A stretch of 64,000 bases of DNA. Source: a virus. The stretch lies in IMG/VR virus record IMGVR_UViG_3300021420_000014, one strand, 5' to 3'. The translations under genes and the position numbers were made by a program. Positions 2,968-11,336 of this stretch are shown here, piece after piece (the stretch's first letter is position 1; every line of letters begins with the position of its first letter). The notes under the pieces were generated by a model. That model was not told the origin of the DNA. It made no database searches and worked only from the letters and a program-made list of their open reading frames with translations.

Positions 2968-3624
2968 TTGCAGATAACGGAGATGTTCGAAATGGCAGCC
3001 AAAAACGCAAATGATTCATTGCTCTCTGACATTGATTTTGAGCCCATCGAGGATATTAAGCCGGACAGAAACAATCCCAACAGGCATACGCCGCGCGGCA
3101 AAAAACTTTTGAAGTCTTCACTCAAAAAGTTTGGGGCCGGCCGATCGATATTGCTCGATGCTGAGAATCGCGTGATCTCCGGGAATGCCACCTTTGAGCA
3201 GGCCAGACAGTTGGGCTACAAAAAAGTCATGGTGGTGGACTCTGATGGCGATACGCTGGTTGCCGTACGTCGGAAAGATCTCAATCTTGAAGGTGACGAC
3301 AAGAAGGCTAGAGAACTGGCAGCCCATGACAACAGAGTTGGGCAGGTTGACCTGGAATGGGACACCGACATCTTGAAGAGTACGGACGTCGACCTAACGG
3401 AACTATTTGAACCAATCGAGTTGGACAATCTTCTGAACGACGGCAAGGGCAGAAAGCGAATCGACAAAATCGATCTGCAGCCTCCTCCCAAGATGATTTG
3501 GATCCTTTTGGGCGTTCCATTCAATCGTTTCGATGAAATTCAGCCACACTATCAGGCACTCGAAGCTATCAGCGATATCAGTGTTCAGCAGGCAAGGAAC
3601 GCAGAGGAAGAAAAGAAATCTTGA
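2968..3624 (+). CDS. ParB/Srx N-terminal domain protein
   Basis: IKPDRNNPNRH, SLKKFG, ISGNAT, DNRVGQ; start uncertain. Confidence 0.75.
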   Translation: MQITEMFEMAAKNANDSLLSDIDFEPIEDIKPDRNNPNRHTPRGKKLLKSSLKKFGAGRSILLDAENRVISGNATFEQARQLGYKKVMVVDSDGDTLVAVRRKDLNLEGDDKKARELAAHDNRVGQVDLEWDTDILKSTDVDLTELFEPIELDNLLNDGKGRKRIDKIDLQPPPKMIWILLGVPFNRFDEIQPHYQALEAISDISVQQARNAEEEKKS

Positions 3625-4959: not shown

Positions 4960-6546
4960 ATGCAAACTTCGTTTTTAGAGCGTTTTCGTGCTGCTCGTAG
5001 AGTTAGTACCCCGCTCATTGCAATTCGCACGGCGGATCCTGCCGCAACGGTCGCCGATATCGCCAGAGATAAGGCTCAGGTTGCGGCCATGATCCTGTGG
5101 GATTCCGTCTCAGGCATAGTGGGCGTCAACGAACCGGACGGTAAAAACGTCGTCCGGCAACTGGTAAAACCAAACCGTGACCGTGATAACGATGAAGATC
5201 GTCTGGAAGATCCTTTGGCTTTCCTTGTGAAGATAGCTGCGAAGGAAGCAACCCCGAGAGGCACTATAATCTTTGCATACAACCTGAATCTCTTCTTTAA
5301 CGATCATCGCGTCATACAGGCGGTTTGGAACCTTCGCGATAAACTCAAACAGGAAAATAAGACTTTGGTCCTGCTTTGCCCGTCCATCACTTTGCCTCCG
5401 CAGCTGGCGCAAGATGTATTGATTCTGGACGAACCACTTCCGGACGCGGCTGGCCTGGCAGCTATTGTGGGCGAAATGTATTTGGCAGGAAATCTTCCAT
5501 CGCCGAAACAGGAAATCCTTGAACGTGCCGTCGAAGCACTCTCCGGCCTCGCAGCTTTTCCCGCAGAGCAGGTTACGGCCATGAGCATCACCGAAAAGGG
5601 CCTTGATATTGAAAGCTTATGGGAACGCAAACGCCAGCAAATCGAAATGACGCCTGGCCTGAGCATCTGGCGCGGCAAGGATGACTTCAAGAGCGTTGTC
5701 GGGCTCGATAACGCCAAGGAATTTCATCGCCGTCGCGGCATGGGGCCTTTGCGGCGTCGCACCATCGTATTCATTGACGAGATCGACAAGCATATGTCCA
5801 ATTTTGGCGCGATCGGCACCGGAGATACCACAACCGAAATGGTTGGCACTCTTCTGACAGACATGGAAGAAACCGAAGCAGAAGGGAGTGCGTTCCTCGG
5901 CGTCGCTGGAGCCGGCAAAACATTACTTGCTAAAGCGATTGCCAATGAGTGGGGGGTCCCGTTGATCTTCTTCGATCTGGCCGGCATGAAAGCTTCGCAC
6001 GTCGGCCAATCGGGCGAGAACATTCGCAATGCCCTGAAGGTGGTCCATGCCGTAAGTCAGGATCAGGTGTACTACATCTGTACGTGTAATAGATTCGATT
6101 CGTTGCCGCCGGAGATGCGACGCAGGTTTAGATCTGGCACGTTCTTTTTCGATCTGCCGACCAAACCGGAAAAAGAGGCGGCTTGGAAAATCTACCAGGA
6201 GAAATACAAGATAGAGGGACCGCGGCCAGACGATTTAGGCTGGACCGCTGCAGAAATCCGCAATTGCTGCTATAACGCGCATGTCTTGGCATGTCCGCTA
6301 GTGGACGCGGCCAAGTATATCGTGCCCATTTCCGTTTCCTCTGCGGATAAGATCAAGGATCTTAGACGACAGGCAGATGGAAACTTTATTTCTGCCACCT
6401 ACTCCGGTCTATATCATGCGCCGGAAGGTATCGAACCTGAGCCAGTACCAGATATGGTTGTAGCGATCGGAGTCATTCCAGCCAAGCCGAGACGCAAGAT
6501 CATGCCTGAACCTGGTAACGGCGGCAAAAAAGAGCAGGTGAATTAA
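4960..6546 (+). CDS. Ycf46-like AAA+ ATPase with permuted Walker A/B order
   Basis: IVFIDEIDK, GVAGAGKT, CTCN sensor, LPPEMRRR, FFFDLP, GWTAAEI. Confidence 0.85.
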   Translation: MQTSFLERFRAARRVSTPLIAIRTADPAATVADIARDKAQVAAMILWDSVSGIVGVNEPDGKNVVRQLVKPNRDRDNDEDRLEDPLAFLVKIAAKEATPRGTIIFAYNLNLFFNDHRVIQAVWNLRDKLKQENKTLVLLCPSITLPPQLAQDVLILDEPLPDAAGLAAIVGEMYLAGNLPSPKQEILERAVEALSGLAAFPAEQVTAMSITEKGLDIESLWERKRQQIEMTPGLSIWRGKDDFKSVVGLDNAKEFHRRRGMGPLRRRTIVFIDEIDKHMSNFGAIGTGDTTTEMVGTLLTDMEETEAEGSAFLGVAGAGKTLLAKAIANEWGVPLIFFDLAGMKASHVGQSGENIRNALKVVHAVSQDQVYYICTCNRFDSLPPEMRRRFRSGTFFFDLPTKPEKEAAWKIYQEKYKIEGPRPDDLGWTAAEIRNCCYNAHVLACPLVDAAKYIVPISVSSADKIKDLRRQADGNFISATYSGLYHAPEGIEPEPVPDMVVAIGVIPAKPRRKIMPEPGNGGKKEQVN

Positions 6547-6842
6547 TGGCGCGCGCGTTCCTTCATCAATGGGAAGTTCGGAGCCATACAGGTGATGATG
6601 TTTATAAGGTGACCGAGTACTTAGACGGCACATGGGCCTGCGCATGTCCACGGTGGAAGTTTTGCAAAGCCCCAAAACTGGATTGTAAACATATCCTTGG
6701 CGTCAAGGCCGAAGAACCACATCAGGCAATGCCGATCACGCAGATGCAGGAACAGGCACGGCGACAGATGATACGGCCACCTGAGCCTACATCGCATCCC
6801 GTGTTTGTTTTGCAAACTCGTCGTGTCATTCAATTGGGTTGA
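6546..6842 (+). CDS. SWIM zinc-finger protein, tagged tail
   Basis: WACACP...CKHI; ends TRRVIQLG. Confidence 0.75.
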   Translation: MARAFLHQWEVRSHTGDDVYKVTEYLDGTWACACPRWKFCKAPKLDCKHILGVKAEEPHQAMPITQMQEQARRQMIRPPEPTSHPVFVLQTRRVIQLG

Positions 6843-6848
6843 CCAAAA

Positions 6849-7229
6849 ATGATTACAAAAGCGTGGAGGTATCCGAACGGCACGATTGAATTTGGTATTG
6901 TAACTCTTCGTGGCCCAGCCAATTTAGTTCGCGCTAACCAAGATGGTACTTGGCAATGCGATTGCTCAGGCGATCCACCAAAAATCTGGACACCGACCGC
7001 AAAGTTCGGTCCAGGTCATCCTTGGATAAAGCCGGCGTGTGAACACATTGCGGAGGCGTTTGTGCATCACCGGAAAGGAGAAGGCAGGAGAGAACAACTC
7101 ACAGCGGAAGCTAAGCACAGCGCGGAAGTAAAGAAACAGTATGACGAGGAAATGAAGATCAGACGTGAAAAAGACGACACACCGATGGCGGAATTACGGC
7201 CAAGAAGAAAAATCACATTCGACAAATGA
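6849..7229 (+). CDS. SWIM-like zinc-finger protein, tagged tail
   Basis: WQCDC...CEHI; ends LRPRRKITFDK. Confidence 0.65.
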   Translation: MITKAWRYPNGTIEFGIVTLRGPANLVRANQDGTWQCDCSGDPPKIWTPTAKFGPGHPWIKPACEHIAEAFVHHRKGEGRREQLTAEAKHSAEVKKQYDEEMKIRREKDDTPMAELRPRRKITFDK

Positions 7230-7245
7230 AAGAGAGGGTAGCTAT

Positions 7246-7650
7246 ACGAGTCACACCTCGGACATAGAATTAGAAGTCACGGACATCAACTGCCTAGAGG
7301 ATGCCGTAAAAAGCATCCCTGGGCTGGAATTCCTGCGCGGCCAAAAAACGTTCAAGCAGTTTGGTGGCCAGCAAGGTCGCTGCGATCATGCAATTCGCGT
7401 AGCAAATAACAGCCGTGCGTTTGAAATAGGGGTCTCCGAGACAGGCAGGCCTGGTCGCCACAGATTGCAAACCGATTTTTATGGTGGCGGTTACGGGCTC
7501 GAAGAACTTGTTGGTCCAAACGCTAACAAACTGAAGCAAGCATACACCGTCGCCTATTCCAAGAAGCAATGGAAGAAGAAAGGCTTCAAGGTTCGAACAA
7601 CGGTCGACGCGCAAGGCTTTATCGACGTCATAGCCACGCGACGAACATAA
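7246..7650 (+). CDS. DUF1257/Ycf35-like protein (probable ACG start)
   Basis: SHTSDIELEVTD..CL..A, FEIGV, KLKQAY, GFKV; RBS GAGAGGG 7 nt before ACG. Confidence 0.7.
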   Translation, partial: TSHTSDIELEVTDINCLEDAVKSIPGLEFLRGQKTFKQFGGQQGRCDHAIRVANNSRAFEIGVSETGRPGRHRLQTDFYGGGYGLEELVGPNANKLKQAYTVAYSKKQWKKKGFKVRTTVDAQGFIDVIATRRT

Positions 7651-7668: not shown

Positions 7669-8052
7669 TTGGTCTACACAATTTCTCCGCTTGAGTTCGG
7701 CGAACGCCGCGATATCCGCGGGAGACGCATTCCTATCTATGTAGATGCCGATGGGCAGATAGGATGGACGCTTTGTAGCGGTGGAGCAGCGTTTCGTGTT
7801 TTGCGCACTGCCGATCACATGTGGATTTGCAATTGTCCGAACGGACAGGTGAACGGTCGTCGAATAGTTGGCGATCCAGTATGCGATCACATAACGACGG
7901 TTCCTCAGAGTCCTGCGTACGCAAATAGTGAATATCTAAATCAGCTCGACGGTCTGATTCGAACTGAACAACAGATCGTCTCTCGAAATGAGGCACGAAA
8001 GGAACGAGAAGAATACGTTCTACGGCCACGACGAATAATAAATCTCAAATAA
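7669..8052 (+). CDS. SWIM-like zinc-finger protein, tagged tail
   Basis: WICNCP...CDHI; ends LRPRRIINLK. Confidence 0.65.
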   Translation: MVYTISPLEFGERRDIRGRRIPIYVDADGQIGWTLCSGGAAFRVLRTADHMWICNCPNGQVNGRRIVGDPVCDHITTVPQSPAYANSEYLNQLDGLIRTEQQIVSRNEARKEREEYVLRPRRIINLK

Positions 8053-8061
8053 GGAGATCAC

Positions 8062-8256
8062 ATGGCAGAGGAAATCGTACGAATCCGCGTTTCGCCCGAA
8101 GGCAACGCGACTATCAGCGTCAAGGGCGTGAAGGGAAGATCATGCAAGGAACTCACAAAGACTTTTGAAGAAGGCCTTGGAAAGGTGGTGAGCAGTGAAA
8201 ACACAAGCGAAATGTATGAAAAAGAAACAGAGGTTCAGATTAAGAATAGGGCCTGA
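8062..8256 (+). CDS. DUF2997 family protein
   Basis: ISVKGVKGRSCKELTKTFEEGLG..TSEMY; GGAG RBS. Confidence 0.8.
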   Translation: MAEEIVRIRVSPEGNATISVKGVKGRSCKELTKTFEEGLGKVVSSENTSEMYEKETEVQIKNRA

Positions 8257-8961: not shown

Positions 8962-10044
8962 ATGAGATCAGCACAACGTAGTGCAATCCAGAAGTCAGCA
9001 GCACAGAAGGCTTGGGAGACTCGCAAGAGGAACCGCAGCAATCCGCCACTGCCGCCAAAAAAGACAATTAAACTGCAACCATTGCCGGCGATCAAATTGC
9101 CGACGAATCCGGAACTTGTTTCGCCCGATCAGATCATGGCGCGCACCTGCGTTATGGTCCTCACTTTCCATGGCATCGGCAATCGCCGCAAGGTGGACAC
9201 TGACAACATAGAAGTCAAGTCAAGTGACAAGCGCGCCGCAGCCAAAGAAAGCGAAGTGGACAAGGCGTGGTTACACCTGACGAAGCGGCTGATCGAAGCG
9301 GAAGAACTAGACAAGATCACGTCCAGCTACGGTGAGATGCGCCGGTACGTTGAGAACTTGGCTTTGCCGTCGTACATTAAGCGCGGCGTATACATCATGC
9401 CGACCGCATTCGTGATGCAAGTGGACGCCAAACTCAAGGAAGGCACTGCGACCGTTCAACCATTCATCAAATCGCTCGGCAAACGCTACGAAGCCATCAA
9501 AGCAGAATCTCAAAAGAGGCTCGGTCCCCAATATAACGAGGCCGACTACATGACCAGAGAACAACTGATGGCTGCCTTTCAAGTGTCGTGGCGGTTCCTT
9601 TACGTGGATAGCGCACCGAACTTGGCCGGTGTATCAAAGGAAATCTACGAAGAGGAACGCCGAAAAGCGCAGCAAGATTGGGCAGATCTCGCCCAAGTTC
9701 ACAGACAGATGCTTCGCAGCCACATGTCGGAGTTCGTCAATCACTTGGCAGATAGGCTTGCGCCCAACGAAGAAGGCCGGCTCAAAATGTTCAAAGAAGG
9801 CTCTGTCACGAAGTTCCAGCAGTTTTTGGAAAACTTCGAGCCACGCAATATCGGCAACGATCTTCAAATGAAGGTTCTTGTCGATCGGGCAAAACAGTTG
9901 CTCACCGGCAACGACGCCGAGTCTTTGCGAACCAACGACGAACTGCGGGCACATGTAAGGCAAGGTTTTGAAAACATCAAAGCCGCCCTAGACACGATGG
10001 TTGTTTTGAAACCGCGACGGATCATTACATTTGACAGATCGTAG
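8962..10044 (+). CDS. DUF3150-like protein, tagged tail
   Basis: KRLI, ALPSYIKRGVY, RLGPQYNEADY, helical C-half; ends LKPRRIITFDRS. Confidence 0.6.
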   Translation: MRSAQRSAIQKSAAQKAWETRKRNRSNPPLPPKKTIKLQPLPAIKLPTNPELVSPDQIMARTCVMVLTFHGIGNRRKVDTDNIEVKSSDKRAAAKESEVDKAWLHLTKRLIEAEELDKITSSYGEMRRYVENLALPSYIKRGVYIMPTAFVMQVDAKLKEGTATVQPFIKSLGKRYEAIKAESQKRLGPQYNEADYMTREQLMAAFQVSWRFLYVDSAPNLAGVSKEIYEEERRKAQQDWADLAQVHRQMLRSHMSEFVNHLADRLAPNEEGRLKMFKEGSVTKFQQFLENFEPRNIGNDLQMKVLVDRAKQLLTGNDAESLRTNDELRAHVRQGFENIKAALDTMVVLKPRRIITFDRS

Positions 10045-10059: not shown

Positions 10060-10478
10060 AAGAGAGTGTAGAGCCATGAGAAAGCCGGAGCCATTTGCCA
10101 AAGTAAAAGTGGGGCCGGGCCAACCGGCCCCGCGGCGTTTTAAGACACTGGTGGATGGCAGTGAATTGGTTGCTTTGTACAACGAGTCGAATACGATGTG
10201 GGACATTTATCTGGATGGCTATCGAATCGGATATGTCAAACACAGAATGGAGTGGCTGGCACTCCTTCAGTTGGGGGCACGATTTAATCATCGCGTGATT
10301 GGCAAATTTGTGCGATGGCAGGATGCGGTCAATCACGTAATCACCACATTTCTGGCTCATCGGGCAAATTGGTCGGCCAGTAAGGCTCACCTATTTTTTA
10401 GCAAGGCTGTGAAGTTAGAAGATGTCGAGCAGGAACAGGTACCGCGACGCCGCTAAGTTCGCAAAAGGGAGAATCGAA

Positions 10479-11336
10479 ATGGGAGCGCATACCGTTTGGA
10501 AGGGACATTTGTCTTTCGGCTTGTTGAATATCCCGGTACGGTTGTACGTAGGAGCCCGGGACAAACGCGTTGAACTGCATACCTATCACACCAAATGCAA
10601 TGGTCCGGTCAAAGAACCGAAGTATTGCAACGCCTGCCAAGAGATGCTGGCTCCGGAACAAATCTACAAGGGCTATGCAATCGACGGGAAGATCGTTCAG
10701 ATTACCAAAGAAGAGATCGAACAGCTTACGCCAAGCAGCGGAAAAGTGTTGGAGATTACAGAATGCGTCAAGTGGGCCGACGTCGACCCACTCTATCTGG
10801 CCGAATCCTTTTATTTACTGCCAGAAGATGTCGGCCGCAAAGCCTACGGTCTCCTCGTCAAGACGCTCACCGATACTGGCCGTGTCGCCATTGCTCAACT
10901 AGCCAAGTCAGGCAGGGAGAACGTAATTCTCTTGCGGCCCAAAGGCAATGGGCTGATCGTTCATTACATTTGGTATCCGACAGAGATTGCAAGACTCGCT
11001 GAATTCGAAGATCTGGAAGCGGTCGCGTTCACAGCGTCCGAACTGAAATTGGCACGACAACTGGCCGAAAGTTTCGATTCCGAATTCAATCCCGAGATAT
11101 TCGAAGATGGCTACTACATGCGCTTAACTCAATTGATCGAATCCAAGCTGGACAAGTCGGTCCAGGCACCGCAAGCGGTCAATGTTGCAGTCGCTCCTCC
11201 GGCCCAAGATCTCATGGCCGCGCTGTCTGCTTCACTCGCTACTCCCAAGCCGCGTCGGTCGATCAAGTTGAATGCTGAGCCAGAGCCGGCGAAAGTTGCT
11301 GAAAAAACCAAGGGCAAGAAAGGCAAGGCGGCCTAA
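10479..11336 (+). CDS. ku: Ku (NHEJ DNA end-binding protein)
   Basis: WKGHLSFGLLNIPVRLY, IYKGY, VDPLYL..SFYLLP, KAYGLL, DLMAALSASL, Lys-rich tail. Confidence 0.93.
   Translation: MGAHTVWKGHLSFGLLNIPVRLYVGARDKRVELHTYHTKCNGPVKEPKYCNACQEMLAPEQIYKGYAIDGKIVQITKEEIEQLTPSSGKVLEITECVKWADVDPLYLAESFYLLPEDVGRKAYGLLVKTLTDTGRVAIAQLAKSGRENVILLRPKGNGLIVHYIWYPTEIARLAEFEDLEAVAFTASELKLARQLAESFDSEFNPEIFEDGYYMRLTQLIESKLDKSVQAPQAVNVAVAPPAQDLMAALSASLATPKPRRSIKLNAEPEPAKVAEKTKGKKGKAA

Follow-up and report, generated by a model that had tools for sequence, protein, structure and literature searches.

In AAA+ motors, the order Walker A, Walker B, sensor 1 and arginine finger is treated as fixed by textbooks, profile models and annotation pipelines. 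To our knowledge, the Walker B block follows helix 2 in every described AAA protein. Motif permutation is known from other P-loop NTPases, since the circularly permuted GTPases YlqF/YawG and RsgA/YjeQ have the motif order G4-G5-G1-G2-G3 and retain the 3D active site. Here we analyze a gene (P0001; 4960..6546, plus strand) in a 64,000-nucleotide stretch of viral DNA (IMG/VR record IMGVR_UViG_3300021420_000014; hereafter the window), which encodes a two-domain AAA protein of 528 aa with a segment-swapped ATPase core. Its best sequence and structure matches among known proteins are Cdc48/p97/VCP, NVL/Rix7 and Drg1/AFG2, which belong to the type II classic clade, and the single-ring proteins Vps4, spastin and FIGNL1.

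Domain organization and motif order

The open reading frame contains no stops or frameshifts, and all features described below lie on the plus strand. The protein has two domains, and the identity of its N-terminal half went beyond the reading in the original prediction. Residues 1-230 (4960..5649) are a degenerate AAA-like domain in the D1 position, delimited by alignment of the structural model to p97 D1-D2 and by alignment with relatives. This domain is composed of an alpha/beta core and a helical lid, lacks Walker motifs, and is common to relatives in which the motifs have the normal order.

In the second domain, helix alpha-0 (residues 250-260, 5707..5739; placed by DSSP of the model and by alignment) now precedes strand 3 instead of strand 1. 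The segment that follows, block B (residues 267-306, 5758..5877), has moved and carries strand 3, Walker B, pore loop 2 and helix 3. The Walker B acids D273 and E274 (5776-5781) are within the motif IVFIDEIDK. Block A (residues 307-367, 5878..6060) comprises strand 1, the P-loop, helix 1, strand 2, pore loop 1 and helix 2; the P-loop GVAGAGKT is encoded at 5899-5922 (residues 314-321, including K320) and the HVG of pore loop 1 at 5998-6006. The start of block C (residues 368-401, 6061..6162) provides strand 4 (6067-6090) with the sensor-1 asparagine N377 (in YYICTCN, 6070-6090), the LPPEMRRR motif (6103-6126) with arginines R387-389 (6118-6126), and strand 5. The helical lid (residues 402-472, 6163..6375) has GWTAAEI at the classic-clade sensor-2 position, where the family consensus is GWTGAEI. 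Near the C terminus is a KPRRKI motif (residues 509-514, 6484..6501); of 120 family members, at least 90% keep its R512.

The chain order is block B, block A, block C (strand 4, the arginines and strand 5) and then the lid. Walker B (D273/E274) is located 47 residues ahead of the Walker A lysine, with sensor 1 and then the arginines downstream. The original prediction, that a Walker B segment stands ahead of Walker A in this reading frame, was borne out. T268 of the Walker B strand begins at 5761, YYICTCN and LPPEMRRR read intact and in frame as claimed, and the predicted P-loop position is correct for GVAGAGKT, apart from a trivial offset for the flanking FL (from 5893).

The domain has a classic-clade Walker A (GxxGxGK[ST]; GVAGAGKT), a Walker B of the form hhhhDE (IVFIDE, homologous to the canonical block) and a second region of homology with the sensor-1 Asn and arginine finger(s). 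It does not follow the collinear classic-clade order (Walker A, pore loop 1, Walker B, pore loop 2, sensor 1, Arg finger), as Walker B and pore loop 2 stand ahead of Walker A. The Pfam AAA model (PF00004) is matched at 63.1 bits (cut-off 21.2 bits), and only as three separate stretches. Split and swapped profile hits had been anticipated, and HMMER against PDB chains returned them: residues 307-360 correspond to Cdc48 524-577 (the Walker A part) and residues 267-313 to Cdc48 584-632 (the Walker B part). The permuted order explains why these proteins have fragmented, low-scoring AAA profile matches. NCBIfam has no specific model for the permuted protein, PHROG 8638 carries no functional assignment, and the only PADLOC match, to IetA, reflects generic P-loop similarity.

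Relatives with the normal order

Among the proteins that are homologous from end to end but keep their motifs in the usual order are Rhizobium phage vB_RleS_L338C gp050 (AHC30467.1) and Mycobacterium phage Firecracker gp100 (YP_009014463.1). They have in common with P0001 the degenerate N-terminal domain, the lid, the C-terminal region and the motifs, as well as a predicted two-tier, p97-like architecture. Several members of the L338C gp050 group are named as SpoVK/Ycf46/Vps4-type proteins by JGI (COG0464), and the homology of P0001 to proteins of this type is full-length, including the N-terminal domain. In L338C and Firecracker, Walker B, pore loop 2 and helix 3 come after helix 2, whereas in P0001 this block of ~40 residues is found between helix 0 and strand 1.

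Sequence comparison demonstrates that this is one block in two places. Alignment with the normal-order relatives shows it present upstream and absent downstream, and in hhalign against the L338C gp050 group (probability 100, E 2.7e-44, 437 columns) the two B blocks show up as reciprocal indels. The moved block aligned to the canonical block with a local score of 66 (z 11.4), and a sequence reordered by script aligned collinearly, with 27.6% identity over 456 columns. In a search of P0001 against a library of 1.84 billion proteins, normal-order relatives were recovered at E 3.5e-21 to 1.6e-5, compared with 1e-94 or better for permuted members. Permuted and normal-order groups formed separate clades in a tree with only two normal-order groups, where the permuted clade had a support of 0.835.

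Conservation of the swapped order

Walker B precedes Walker A in all of the best 120 homologues and in the best 150 of 5786 cluster representatives (50% identity), so that the search for homologues with the same order, proposed with the original prediction, found it in all 270 that were sampled. Any two of these representatives share less than 50% identity, and at least 150 such clusters carry the permuted order. It is present in gp103 of the Tunturiibacter phage Tunturi_3, which is grown on Tunturiibacter psychrotolerans, and in the complete isolate chromosome of Nitrospira moscoviensis NSP M-1, and it recurs in independent NCBI, JGI, ENA and Logan assemblies. The suggestion that the rewiring is rare holds for the kind of change but not for its carriers, which form a very large family.

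The motif residues are nearly invariant. Among 151 representatives, the first Walker B acid is D in 147 and E in four, and the following E is found in every one, as are the Walker A lysine (K320), the pore-loop glycine G349 and the sensor-1 asparagine N377. R389 is kept in 150 and R388 in 134. With this conservation and the 270 sampled homologues, the swapped order is far beyond chance. Residue conservation also suggests that the gene encodes an ATPase active in hydrolysis. Some family members carry inteins within the P-loop or near sensor 1, a placement typical of active, needed proteins; the long members of the family are intein carriers or have N-terminal extensions.

Predicted fold and strand order

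Structure prediction, a check proposed at the outset, gave a model that folds at high confidence (AF2; pLDDT 91.1, pTM 0.83), with five core strands by DSSP, a lid, and pLDDT >90 on either side of the moved block. Model residues 2..486 align to p97 D1-D2 residues 209..764 (Z 18.9, 397 residues), and the model of a normal-order protein behaves alike. A sequential aligner matched the permuted D2 to chains of p97-D2, Vps4 and spastin over 196-214 residues (Z 15.6-17.1, rmsd 2.5-3.5), versus 248-270 residues for the normal-order relative (Z 23-24). Thus, about 50 residues, roughly the moved block, are lost from the sequential alignment.

Covariation was analyzed in 264 permuted sequences (Neff 206; 32,640 residue pairs). 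The top pair of all is T268-S366, which is the old junction between helix 2 and strand 3. Strand 3 covaries with strand 4 (270-372, 275-374) and with strand 2 (268-334), and shows no coupling to strand 1, where the highest score (0.64) does not reach the 99th percentile (0.87). Strand 1 covaries with strands 4 and 5, and there is no coupling between strands 2 and 4. Based on covariation, DSSP logic and a structure prediction that itself draws on the same covariation signal, the normal parallel sheet order 5-1-4-3-2 appears to be recovered. Given this strand order, the junction coupling, the near-invariant catalytic residues and the pLDDT of 91, the 3D core appears to be kept.

The three new junctions are 13, 11 and 10 residues long in 244-259 of the 264 sequences, the last of these being the helix-2 to strand-4 junction (measured 362-371; 10 residues in 244 sequences). 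Within the junctions, the links between helix 3 and strand 1 and between helix 2 and strand 4 are only ~3 residues each, and their lengths are fixed across the 264 sequences.

Gene neighbourhood

Downstream of the ATPase gene, the window encodes three small putative SWIM-type zinc-finger proteins (6546-6842, 6849-7229 and 7669-8052; SWIM E 0.015, below the Pfam cut-off) and a DUF2997 protein (8062-8256; PF11211, E 9.8e-16), all on the same strand. Tails resembling KPRRKI also occur at the ends of the SWIM proteins and of a 372-aa protein. DUF2997 is a conserved partner of the ATPase family: of 79 bacterial loci with a permuted member, 54 also have a neighbouring DUF2997 gene, as do Tunturi_3 and L338C. 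The module includes a DUF1257 (Ycf35) gene in Tunturi_3 (E 1.2e-7) and in L338C (E 4.8e-9), the latter with the AAA gene followed by the DUF1257 and DUF2997 genes. DUF1257 was not detected in this window, where the plus-strand ORF found in its place (7165-7650) has no Pfam or BLASTP match. We conclude that the gene belongs to the AAA/DUF2997 module of Ycf46-like AAA proteins. A search of the literature on DUF2997, DUF1257 and Ycf46 returned no functional study of this module, normal-order members included.

Proposed mechanism, origin and alternative explanations

Taken as a whole, the evidence makes it likely that P0001 is a functional classic-clade AAA ATPase with a permuted core, a normal 3D arrangement and a single origin, and that it acts as a probable hexameric remodeller. 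The core would retain the 5-1-4-3-2 sheet and a normal active site, with only three connections changed (helix 0 to strand 3, helix 3 to strand 1, and helix 2 to strand 4). Every altered connection would move by one strand, and three short loops would be enough because strands 1, 4 and 3 adjoin and begin at the same edge of the sheet. The original prediction of a non-circular permutation holds for the whole domain, and can be refined to a circular permutation of an internal sub-segment, from strand 1 to helix 3.

The permutation was probably fixed once, in the ancestor of a very large family of phages and prophages. As the simplest route, we conjecture that the segment from strand 1 to helix 3 was duplicated in tandem and that the outer halves were then lost; relics of such a duplication (ABABC intermediates) were not found among the 264 sequences. 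Structural matches to hexameric AAA proteins suggest a hexameric ring. By analogy with p97/Cdc48, Vps4 and spastin, this would probably be a two-tier ring in which the degenerate D1-like N-domain lies over the active permuted D2-like domain. Such a ring could remodel or thread a protein substrate via its pore loops, together with the neighbouring DUF2997 (and DUF1257) partners.

Covariation is blind to whether a contact lies within or between chains, AAA rings have intimate subunit interfaces, and the structure prediction covered the monomer only. The moved block could thus work in trans, with strand 3 and helix 3 entering the neighbouring subunit of a domain-swapped hexamer, such that a lone chain would lack a normal core. 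We consider this improbable. The ~3-residue links on both sides of block A have a fixed length and therefore tie the moved block to the sheet of its own chain, and the monomer model packs the moved block with confidence on both sides of it. It is somewhat less probable still that the acidic motif ahead of the P-loop does not work as a Walker B, the true one having been lost to leave a pseudo-ATPase or switch that binds nucleotide and does not hydrolyse it. The lineage does tolerate degenerate AAA domains, as its N-terminal half shows. However, both the z score and hhalign show homology of the moved block with the canonical Walker B block, its D/E pair is kept in 147-151 of 151 clusters along with sensor 1 and the arginine finger, and its covariation with strands 4 and 2 is what one expects of a genuine strand 3. 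Moreover, nothing is left at the normal Walker B site, which is reduced to the 10-residue junction.

We also considered whether the upstream block could be the Walker B of the N-terminal domain, and rejected this reading: that domain, with its own lid, is complete before residue 230, and the block's homologue in normal-order relatives is the Walker B block of D2. Finally, the window is an uncultured metagenomic contig, in which an assembly or gene-calling artefact, or a rearrangement private to one phage, might be suspected. An artefact at the junctions would have undone the original prediction. The recurrence of the same order in four assembly sources, Tunturi_3, the N. moscoviensis chromosome and at least 150 clusters excludes it, and we assign this explanation a negligible probability.

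Comparison with known systems

A full-text literature search found no published account of a permuted AAA/AAA+ core or of Walker B before Walker A, and the passage on permutation seen in a jumbo-phage survey concerns methylases, not AAA proteins. We think it reasonably probable that the permuted core is a previously undescribed AAA+ topology that became established a single time and persists across about a thousand phage and prophage clusters (50% identity). A large natural family with two exchanged core blocks shows that the fold tolerates non-circular rewiring, and if our reading is true, the AAA+ fold does not require one particular chain order. The P-loop strand would then be the anchor of Walker B and pore loop 2, and the sensor-1 strand that of pore loop 1 and helix 2. 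Because of this changed tethering, the rewiring may alter how the nucleotide state is transmitted to both pore loops, and the family would let the allosteric wiring of AAA motors be studied in a natural experiment. Permuted and normal-order relatives occur in the same operon context and thus offer matched pairs for studying the influence of chain connectivity on folding, allostery and pore-loop coupling. The permuted family could also serve as a template for protein engineers permuting P-loop cores, and it highlights the AAA/DUF1257/DUF2997 module, which is widespread in phages, plasmids and cyanobacteria.

Like the classic-clade AAA proteins, P0001 has Walker A and B, an [aromatic/aliphatic]-V-G pore loop, the sensor-1 N, paired arginines and a lid without a sensor-2 arginine. 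It differs from the Cdc48/p97 set in that sequence kinship is not close (E about 1e-8), the D1-like domain is without any nucleotide motifs, the chain order of the D2 core is different, and fewer residues (by ~50) align sequentially than for the normal-order relative. The permuted GTPases resemble P0001 as a natural, family-defining permutation of P-loop NTPase motifs, and they keep the 3D active site, as P0001 probably does. They belong to TRAFAC and the permutation of the whole G domain is truly circular, whereas in P0001 an internal sub-segment of an AAA (ASCE) domain is permuted and the domain ends stay in place. Non-circular permutations have been reported in non-coding RNAs, in a paper whose abstract also refers to protein domains in which the order of elements changes and their 3D positions are kept (PMC10085705). 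As described in that abstract, functional elements are re-ordered with their 3D positions kept, as proposed for P0001, but the molecules and folds differ.

Order of the core elements in P0001

The AAA-type ATPase P0001 (528 residues) is encoded on the plus strand by the ORF at 4960-6546, and the order of its elements from residue 250 onwards was read from the AlphaFold model together with the sequence. Helix 0 (residues 250-260) is followed by a strand carrying IVFIDEIDK (residues 268-276; D273/E274), a loop and a helix (residues 289-304), and then by a strand that runs into the P-loop GVAGAGKT (residues 308-321; K320). Helix 1 lies between the P-loop and a strand at residues 335-338, after which come the pore-loop triplet HVG (residues 347-349), helix 2 (residues 350-366), a strand with the sensor-1 N377 at its end, LPPEMRRR (residues 382-389), a fifth strand (residues 393-397) and a helical lid. 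These residues bear out the original prediction that Walker B precedes Walker A, and also its nucleotide coordinates, with one correction at the P-loop: the peptide starting FL begins at 5893, not 5899, and the rest matches.

Profile and sequence searches gave the split and swapped matches that had been expected. Pfam AAA (PF00004; 63.1 bits) is spread over three stretches of the protein, and phmmer against PDB sequences pairs residues 307-360 with Cdc48 524-577 (Walker A to helix 2) and residues 267-313 with Cdc48 584-632 (Walker B to helix 3). Both pieces of a normal AAA core are present in P0001, in reversed order. We refer to the segment from strand 1/Walker A to helix 2 as block A, and to the moved segment from strand 3/Walker B to helix 3 as block B.

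Distribution of the permuted order

Walker B precedes Walker A in all 120 best of the 1966 homologues from a word-indexed search. When 1.84 billion representatives at 50% identity were searched exhaustively, 5786 clusters matched at E <= 1e-3, of which 1096 reached E <= 1e-30; each of the top 150 is permuted when variant motifs are allowed for. Relatives with the normal order match P0001, at the same database size, only at E 3.5e-21 to 1.6e-5; judging from this gap in E-values, the majority of the 1096 clusters are probably permuted.

The permuted order also occurs in gp103 of the cultured Tunturiibacter phage Tunturi_3 (37% identity over 92% of the protein) and in Nitrospira moscoviensis NSP M-1, whose chromosome sequence is complete. 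The latter gene lies in a prophage-like stretch (1451463-1462932), between a ribonucleotide reductase gene and genes for a primase and an SNF2 helicase. This cultured nitrite oxidiser is a tractable source organism for a permuted ATPase. An assembly artefact is excluded by the order across the homologues, by the cultured Tunturi_3 and by the complete N. moscoviensis chromosome. The species-representative genomes in which the family is most frequent are metagenome-assembled genomes (MAGs) of Acidobacteriota; it is also present in MAGs of Armatimonadota, Nitrospirota, Myxococcota-like, Planctomycetota and other groups, with several copies in some genomes.

Relatives with the normal order

The alignment of P0001 with Rhizobium phage L338C gp050 and Mycobacterium phage Firecracker gp100 extends from the N-terminus into the C-terminal region. 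Unlike P0001, these proteins have the Walker B/helix-3 block at its usual site after helix 2; P0001 has about 40 residues more than they do between helix 0 and strand 1 and about 40 fewer between helix 2 and strand 4. The local score of the moved against the canonical block (66, versus 19.3 ± 4.1 for shuffles; z 11.4) indicates that the two are homologous. A profile-profile comparison of 120 permuted with 103 normal-order sequences (probability 100, E 2.7e-44, 437 columns) places the B blocks as reciprocal indels, and when block B was put behind block A by script the core became collinear with L338C gp050, at 27.6% identity over 456 columns. The normal order is found in all 120 best homologues of L338C gp050. 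A FastTree phylogeny of 83 permuted and 41 normal-order sequences recovers one permuted clade (stem 0.96, support 0.835), which is consistent with a single event, the two normal-order groups in the comparison making this a weak test of single origin.

Conservation, predicted structure and covariation

Across 151 clusters the Walker B glutamate, the Walker A lysine, the pore-loop G349 and the sensor-1 asparagine are invariant; the Walker B aspartate position is D in 147 and E in four, and R389 is kept in 150. This pattern makes sense only if all of these residues meet at one active site. Structure prediction, proposed earlier as a check, folds P0001 with a pLDDT of 91.1 and a pTM of 0.83, and the model core has five strands, every one in sheet conformation. 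In the normal AAA sheet (order 5-1-4-3-2) strand 2 is the edge strand, with strand 3 as its sole partner; since residues 335-338 (strand 2) are modelled as sheet, the strand-3 slot must be filled. With VIA-align, a structure aligner bound to chain order, the permuted D2 aligns with p97-D2, Vps4, spastin and FIGNL1 over 196-214 residues (Z 15.6-17.1, rmsd 2.5-3.5 Å), and the predicted model of L338C gp050 (pLDDT 87.6) aligns with the same chains over 248-270 residues (Z 23-24). The roughly 50 residues lost correspond approximately to the moved block, and the remainder of the model overlays equally well.

Mean-field DCA was run on 264 permuted sequences (Neff 206; 32,640 pairs; 99.9th percentile 1.91, 99th percentile 0.87). 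The top pair, T268-S366 (5.95), links the residue that opens strand 3 with the one that closes helix 2, two positions adjacent in the chain of every normal AAA protein; R267-Q367 also scores high (1.89). Couplings of strand 3 are seen with strand 4 (V270-Y372 1.71, I275-C374 2.69) and with strand 2 (T268-P334 1.26), those of strand 1 with strands 4 (1.27) and 5 (1.80), and those of helix 3 with helix 2 and the pore-loop-1 region (E293-G352 3.93, D301-H363 2.70). In the same 264 sequences no coupling was found between strands 3 and 1 (maximum 0.64, against the 99th percentile of 0.87) or between strands 2 and 4 (0.56). This covariation points to the normal 5-1-4-3-2 arrangement, and AF2 uses the same signal, so that prediction and DCA are not fully independent.

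The three new junctions are short and fixed in length (residues 256-268, 13 residues in 244 of the 264 sequences; 300-310, 11 residues in 259; 362-371, 10 residues in 244), which ties the block to its own chain. No relic of extra block copies was found at these junctions in the 264 sequences.

N-terminal domain and inteins

Residues 1-230 (4960-5649) form an alpha/beta core with a helical lid in the AlphaFold model. Residues 2-486 overlay p97 D1-D2 209-764 (Z 18.9, 397 residues, rmsd 4.0), and the normal-order relative likewise overlays this tandem. Walker motifs are absent from the N-terminal domain, where the P-loop position reads RTADPAAT and carries an invariant R-T-x-D-P stretch, and the domain is kept between permuted and normal-order proteins. 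From these models, P0001 looks like a type II AAA protein in which D1 is dead and D2 is active and rewired. The literature found holds no description of a degenerate AAA-like N-terminal half in the Ycf46-like family. The best PDB sequence matches to P0001 reach only E of about 1e-8, and the family is therefore without a solved structure.

Some family members of both orders carry inteins with homing endonucleases. The insertion site in the P-loop is common to the permuted (P0354, HNH) and normal-order (P0196 and P0205) lineages, and permuted P0256 has a LAGLIDADG intein after the sensor-1 region.

Gene neighbourhood and possible role

The genes around P0001 are all on the plus strand and phage-like, and include a ParB-like nuclease, Ku and PHROG families. 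Downstream of P0001 there are three small SWIM-like zinc-finger ORFs (ending at 6842, 7229 and 8052), a DUF2997 gene (8062-8256, plus strand; a clear match at E 9.8e-16), the ORF of a 372-residue protein (ending at 10044) and, some 4 kb past the ATPase module, a Ku-like gene (10422-11336). A 161-residue ORF (7165-7650) occupies the slot where relatives carry DUF1257 and has no Pfam, PHROG, PADLOC or BLASTP similarity to the DUF1257 of those relatives. Because it shares 65 nt with the end of the SWIM ORF before it, its true start may be further downstream. ParB-like proteins are encoded near the ATPase both here (2968-3624) and in Firecracker (gp94).

DUF1257 and DUF2997 closely follow the ATPase in Tunturi_3 (permuted) and in L338C (normal order), and a search with an HMM from three DUF2997 proteins found a same-strand DUF2997-like ORF within 5 kb at 54 of 79 bacterial loci with a permuted ATPase. 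Permuted and normal-order proteins thus share one module and presumably have a common function. In the literature found, DUF1257 (Ycf35) and DUF2997 appear only as neighbouring genes in cyanobacteria, and PADLOC and NCBIfam offer no specific entry. Because of its fold matches and conserved pore loops, P0001 might be a putative hexameric protein remodeller or unfoldase acting on or with small partner proteins, a suggestion that we make tentatively and with some doubt.

P0001 carries KPRRKI near its C-terminus (6484-6501), and at least 90% of 120 family members keep R512. Similar (K/T/P)RR-x-I tails end the three SWIM ORFs (TRRVIQLG, PRRKITFDK and PRRIINLK) and the 372-residue protein (PRRIITFDRS), and may serve as a common peptide for docking or recognition.

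Nature and possible route of the rewiring

P0001 represents a real rewiring of the classic AAA core, which is family-wide and appears to be functional. The original interpretation as a functional rewired P-loop core is supported by homologues, conservation, fold prediction and covariation, and we regard this structural reading as highly probable. Three connections would be re-routed: helix 0 would lead into strand 3, helix 3 into strand 1 and helix 2 into strand 4. By geometric reasoning, strands 1, 4 and 3 would be neighbours with their starts on one edge of the sheet, so that each connection would move by one strand and every helix would stay on its usual sheet face.

The description of this change as a non-circular permutation holds for the P0001 domain as a whole, the flanks being unchanged around the swap from A-B to B-A. 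With equal justification, the internal stretch that runs from strand 1 to helix 3 can be called circularly permuted. The textbook route to a circular permutation is tandem duplication followed by loss of the outer parts; here, duplication to A-B-A-B could have been followed by deletion of the leading A and the trailing B. As no duplication intermediate was found among the permuted family members, this route is conjecture.

A full-text literature search, with subscription journals mostly outside its reach, returned nothing relevant on a permuted AAA/AAA+ core or on Walker B before Walker A. To our knowledge there is no permuted AAA/AAA+ example, nor an internal, non-circular one in the AAA fold. 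Permutation has precedents among P-loop NTPases, for instance in the circularly permuted GTPases, and this type of event is therefore not new.
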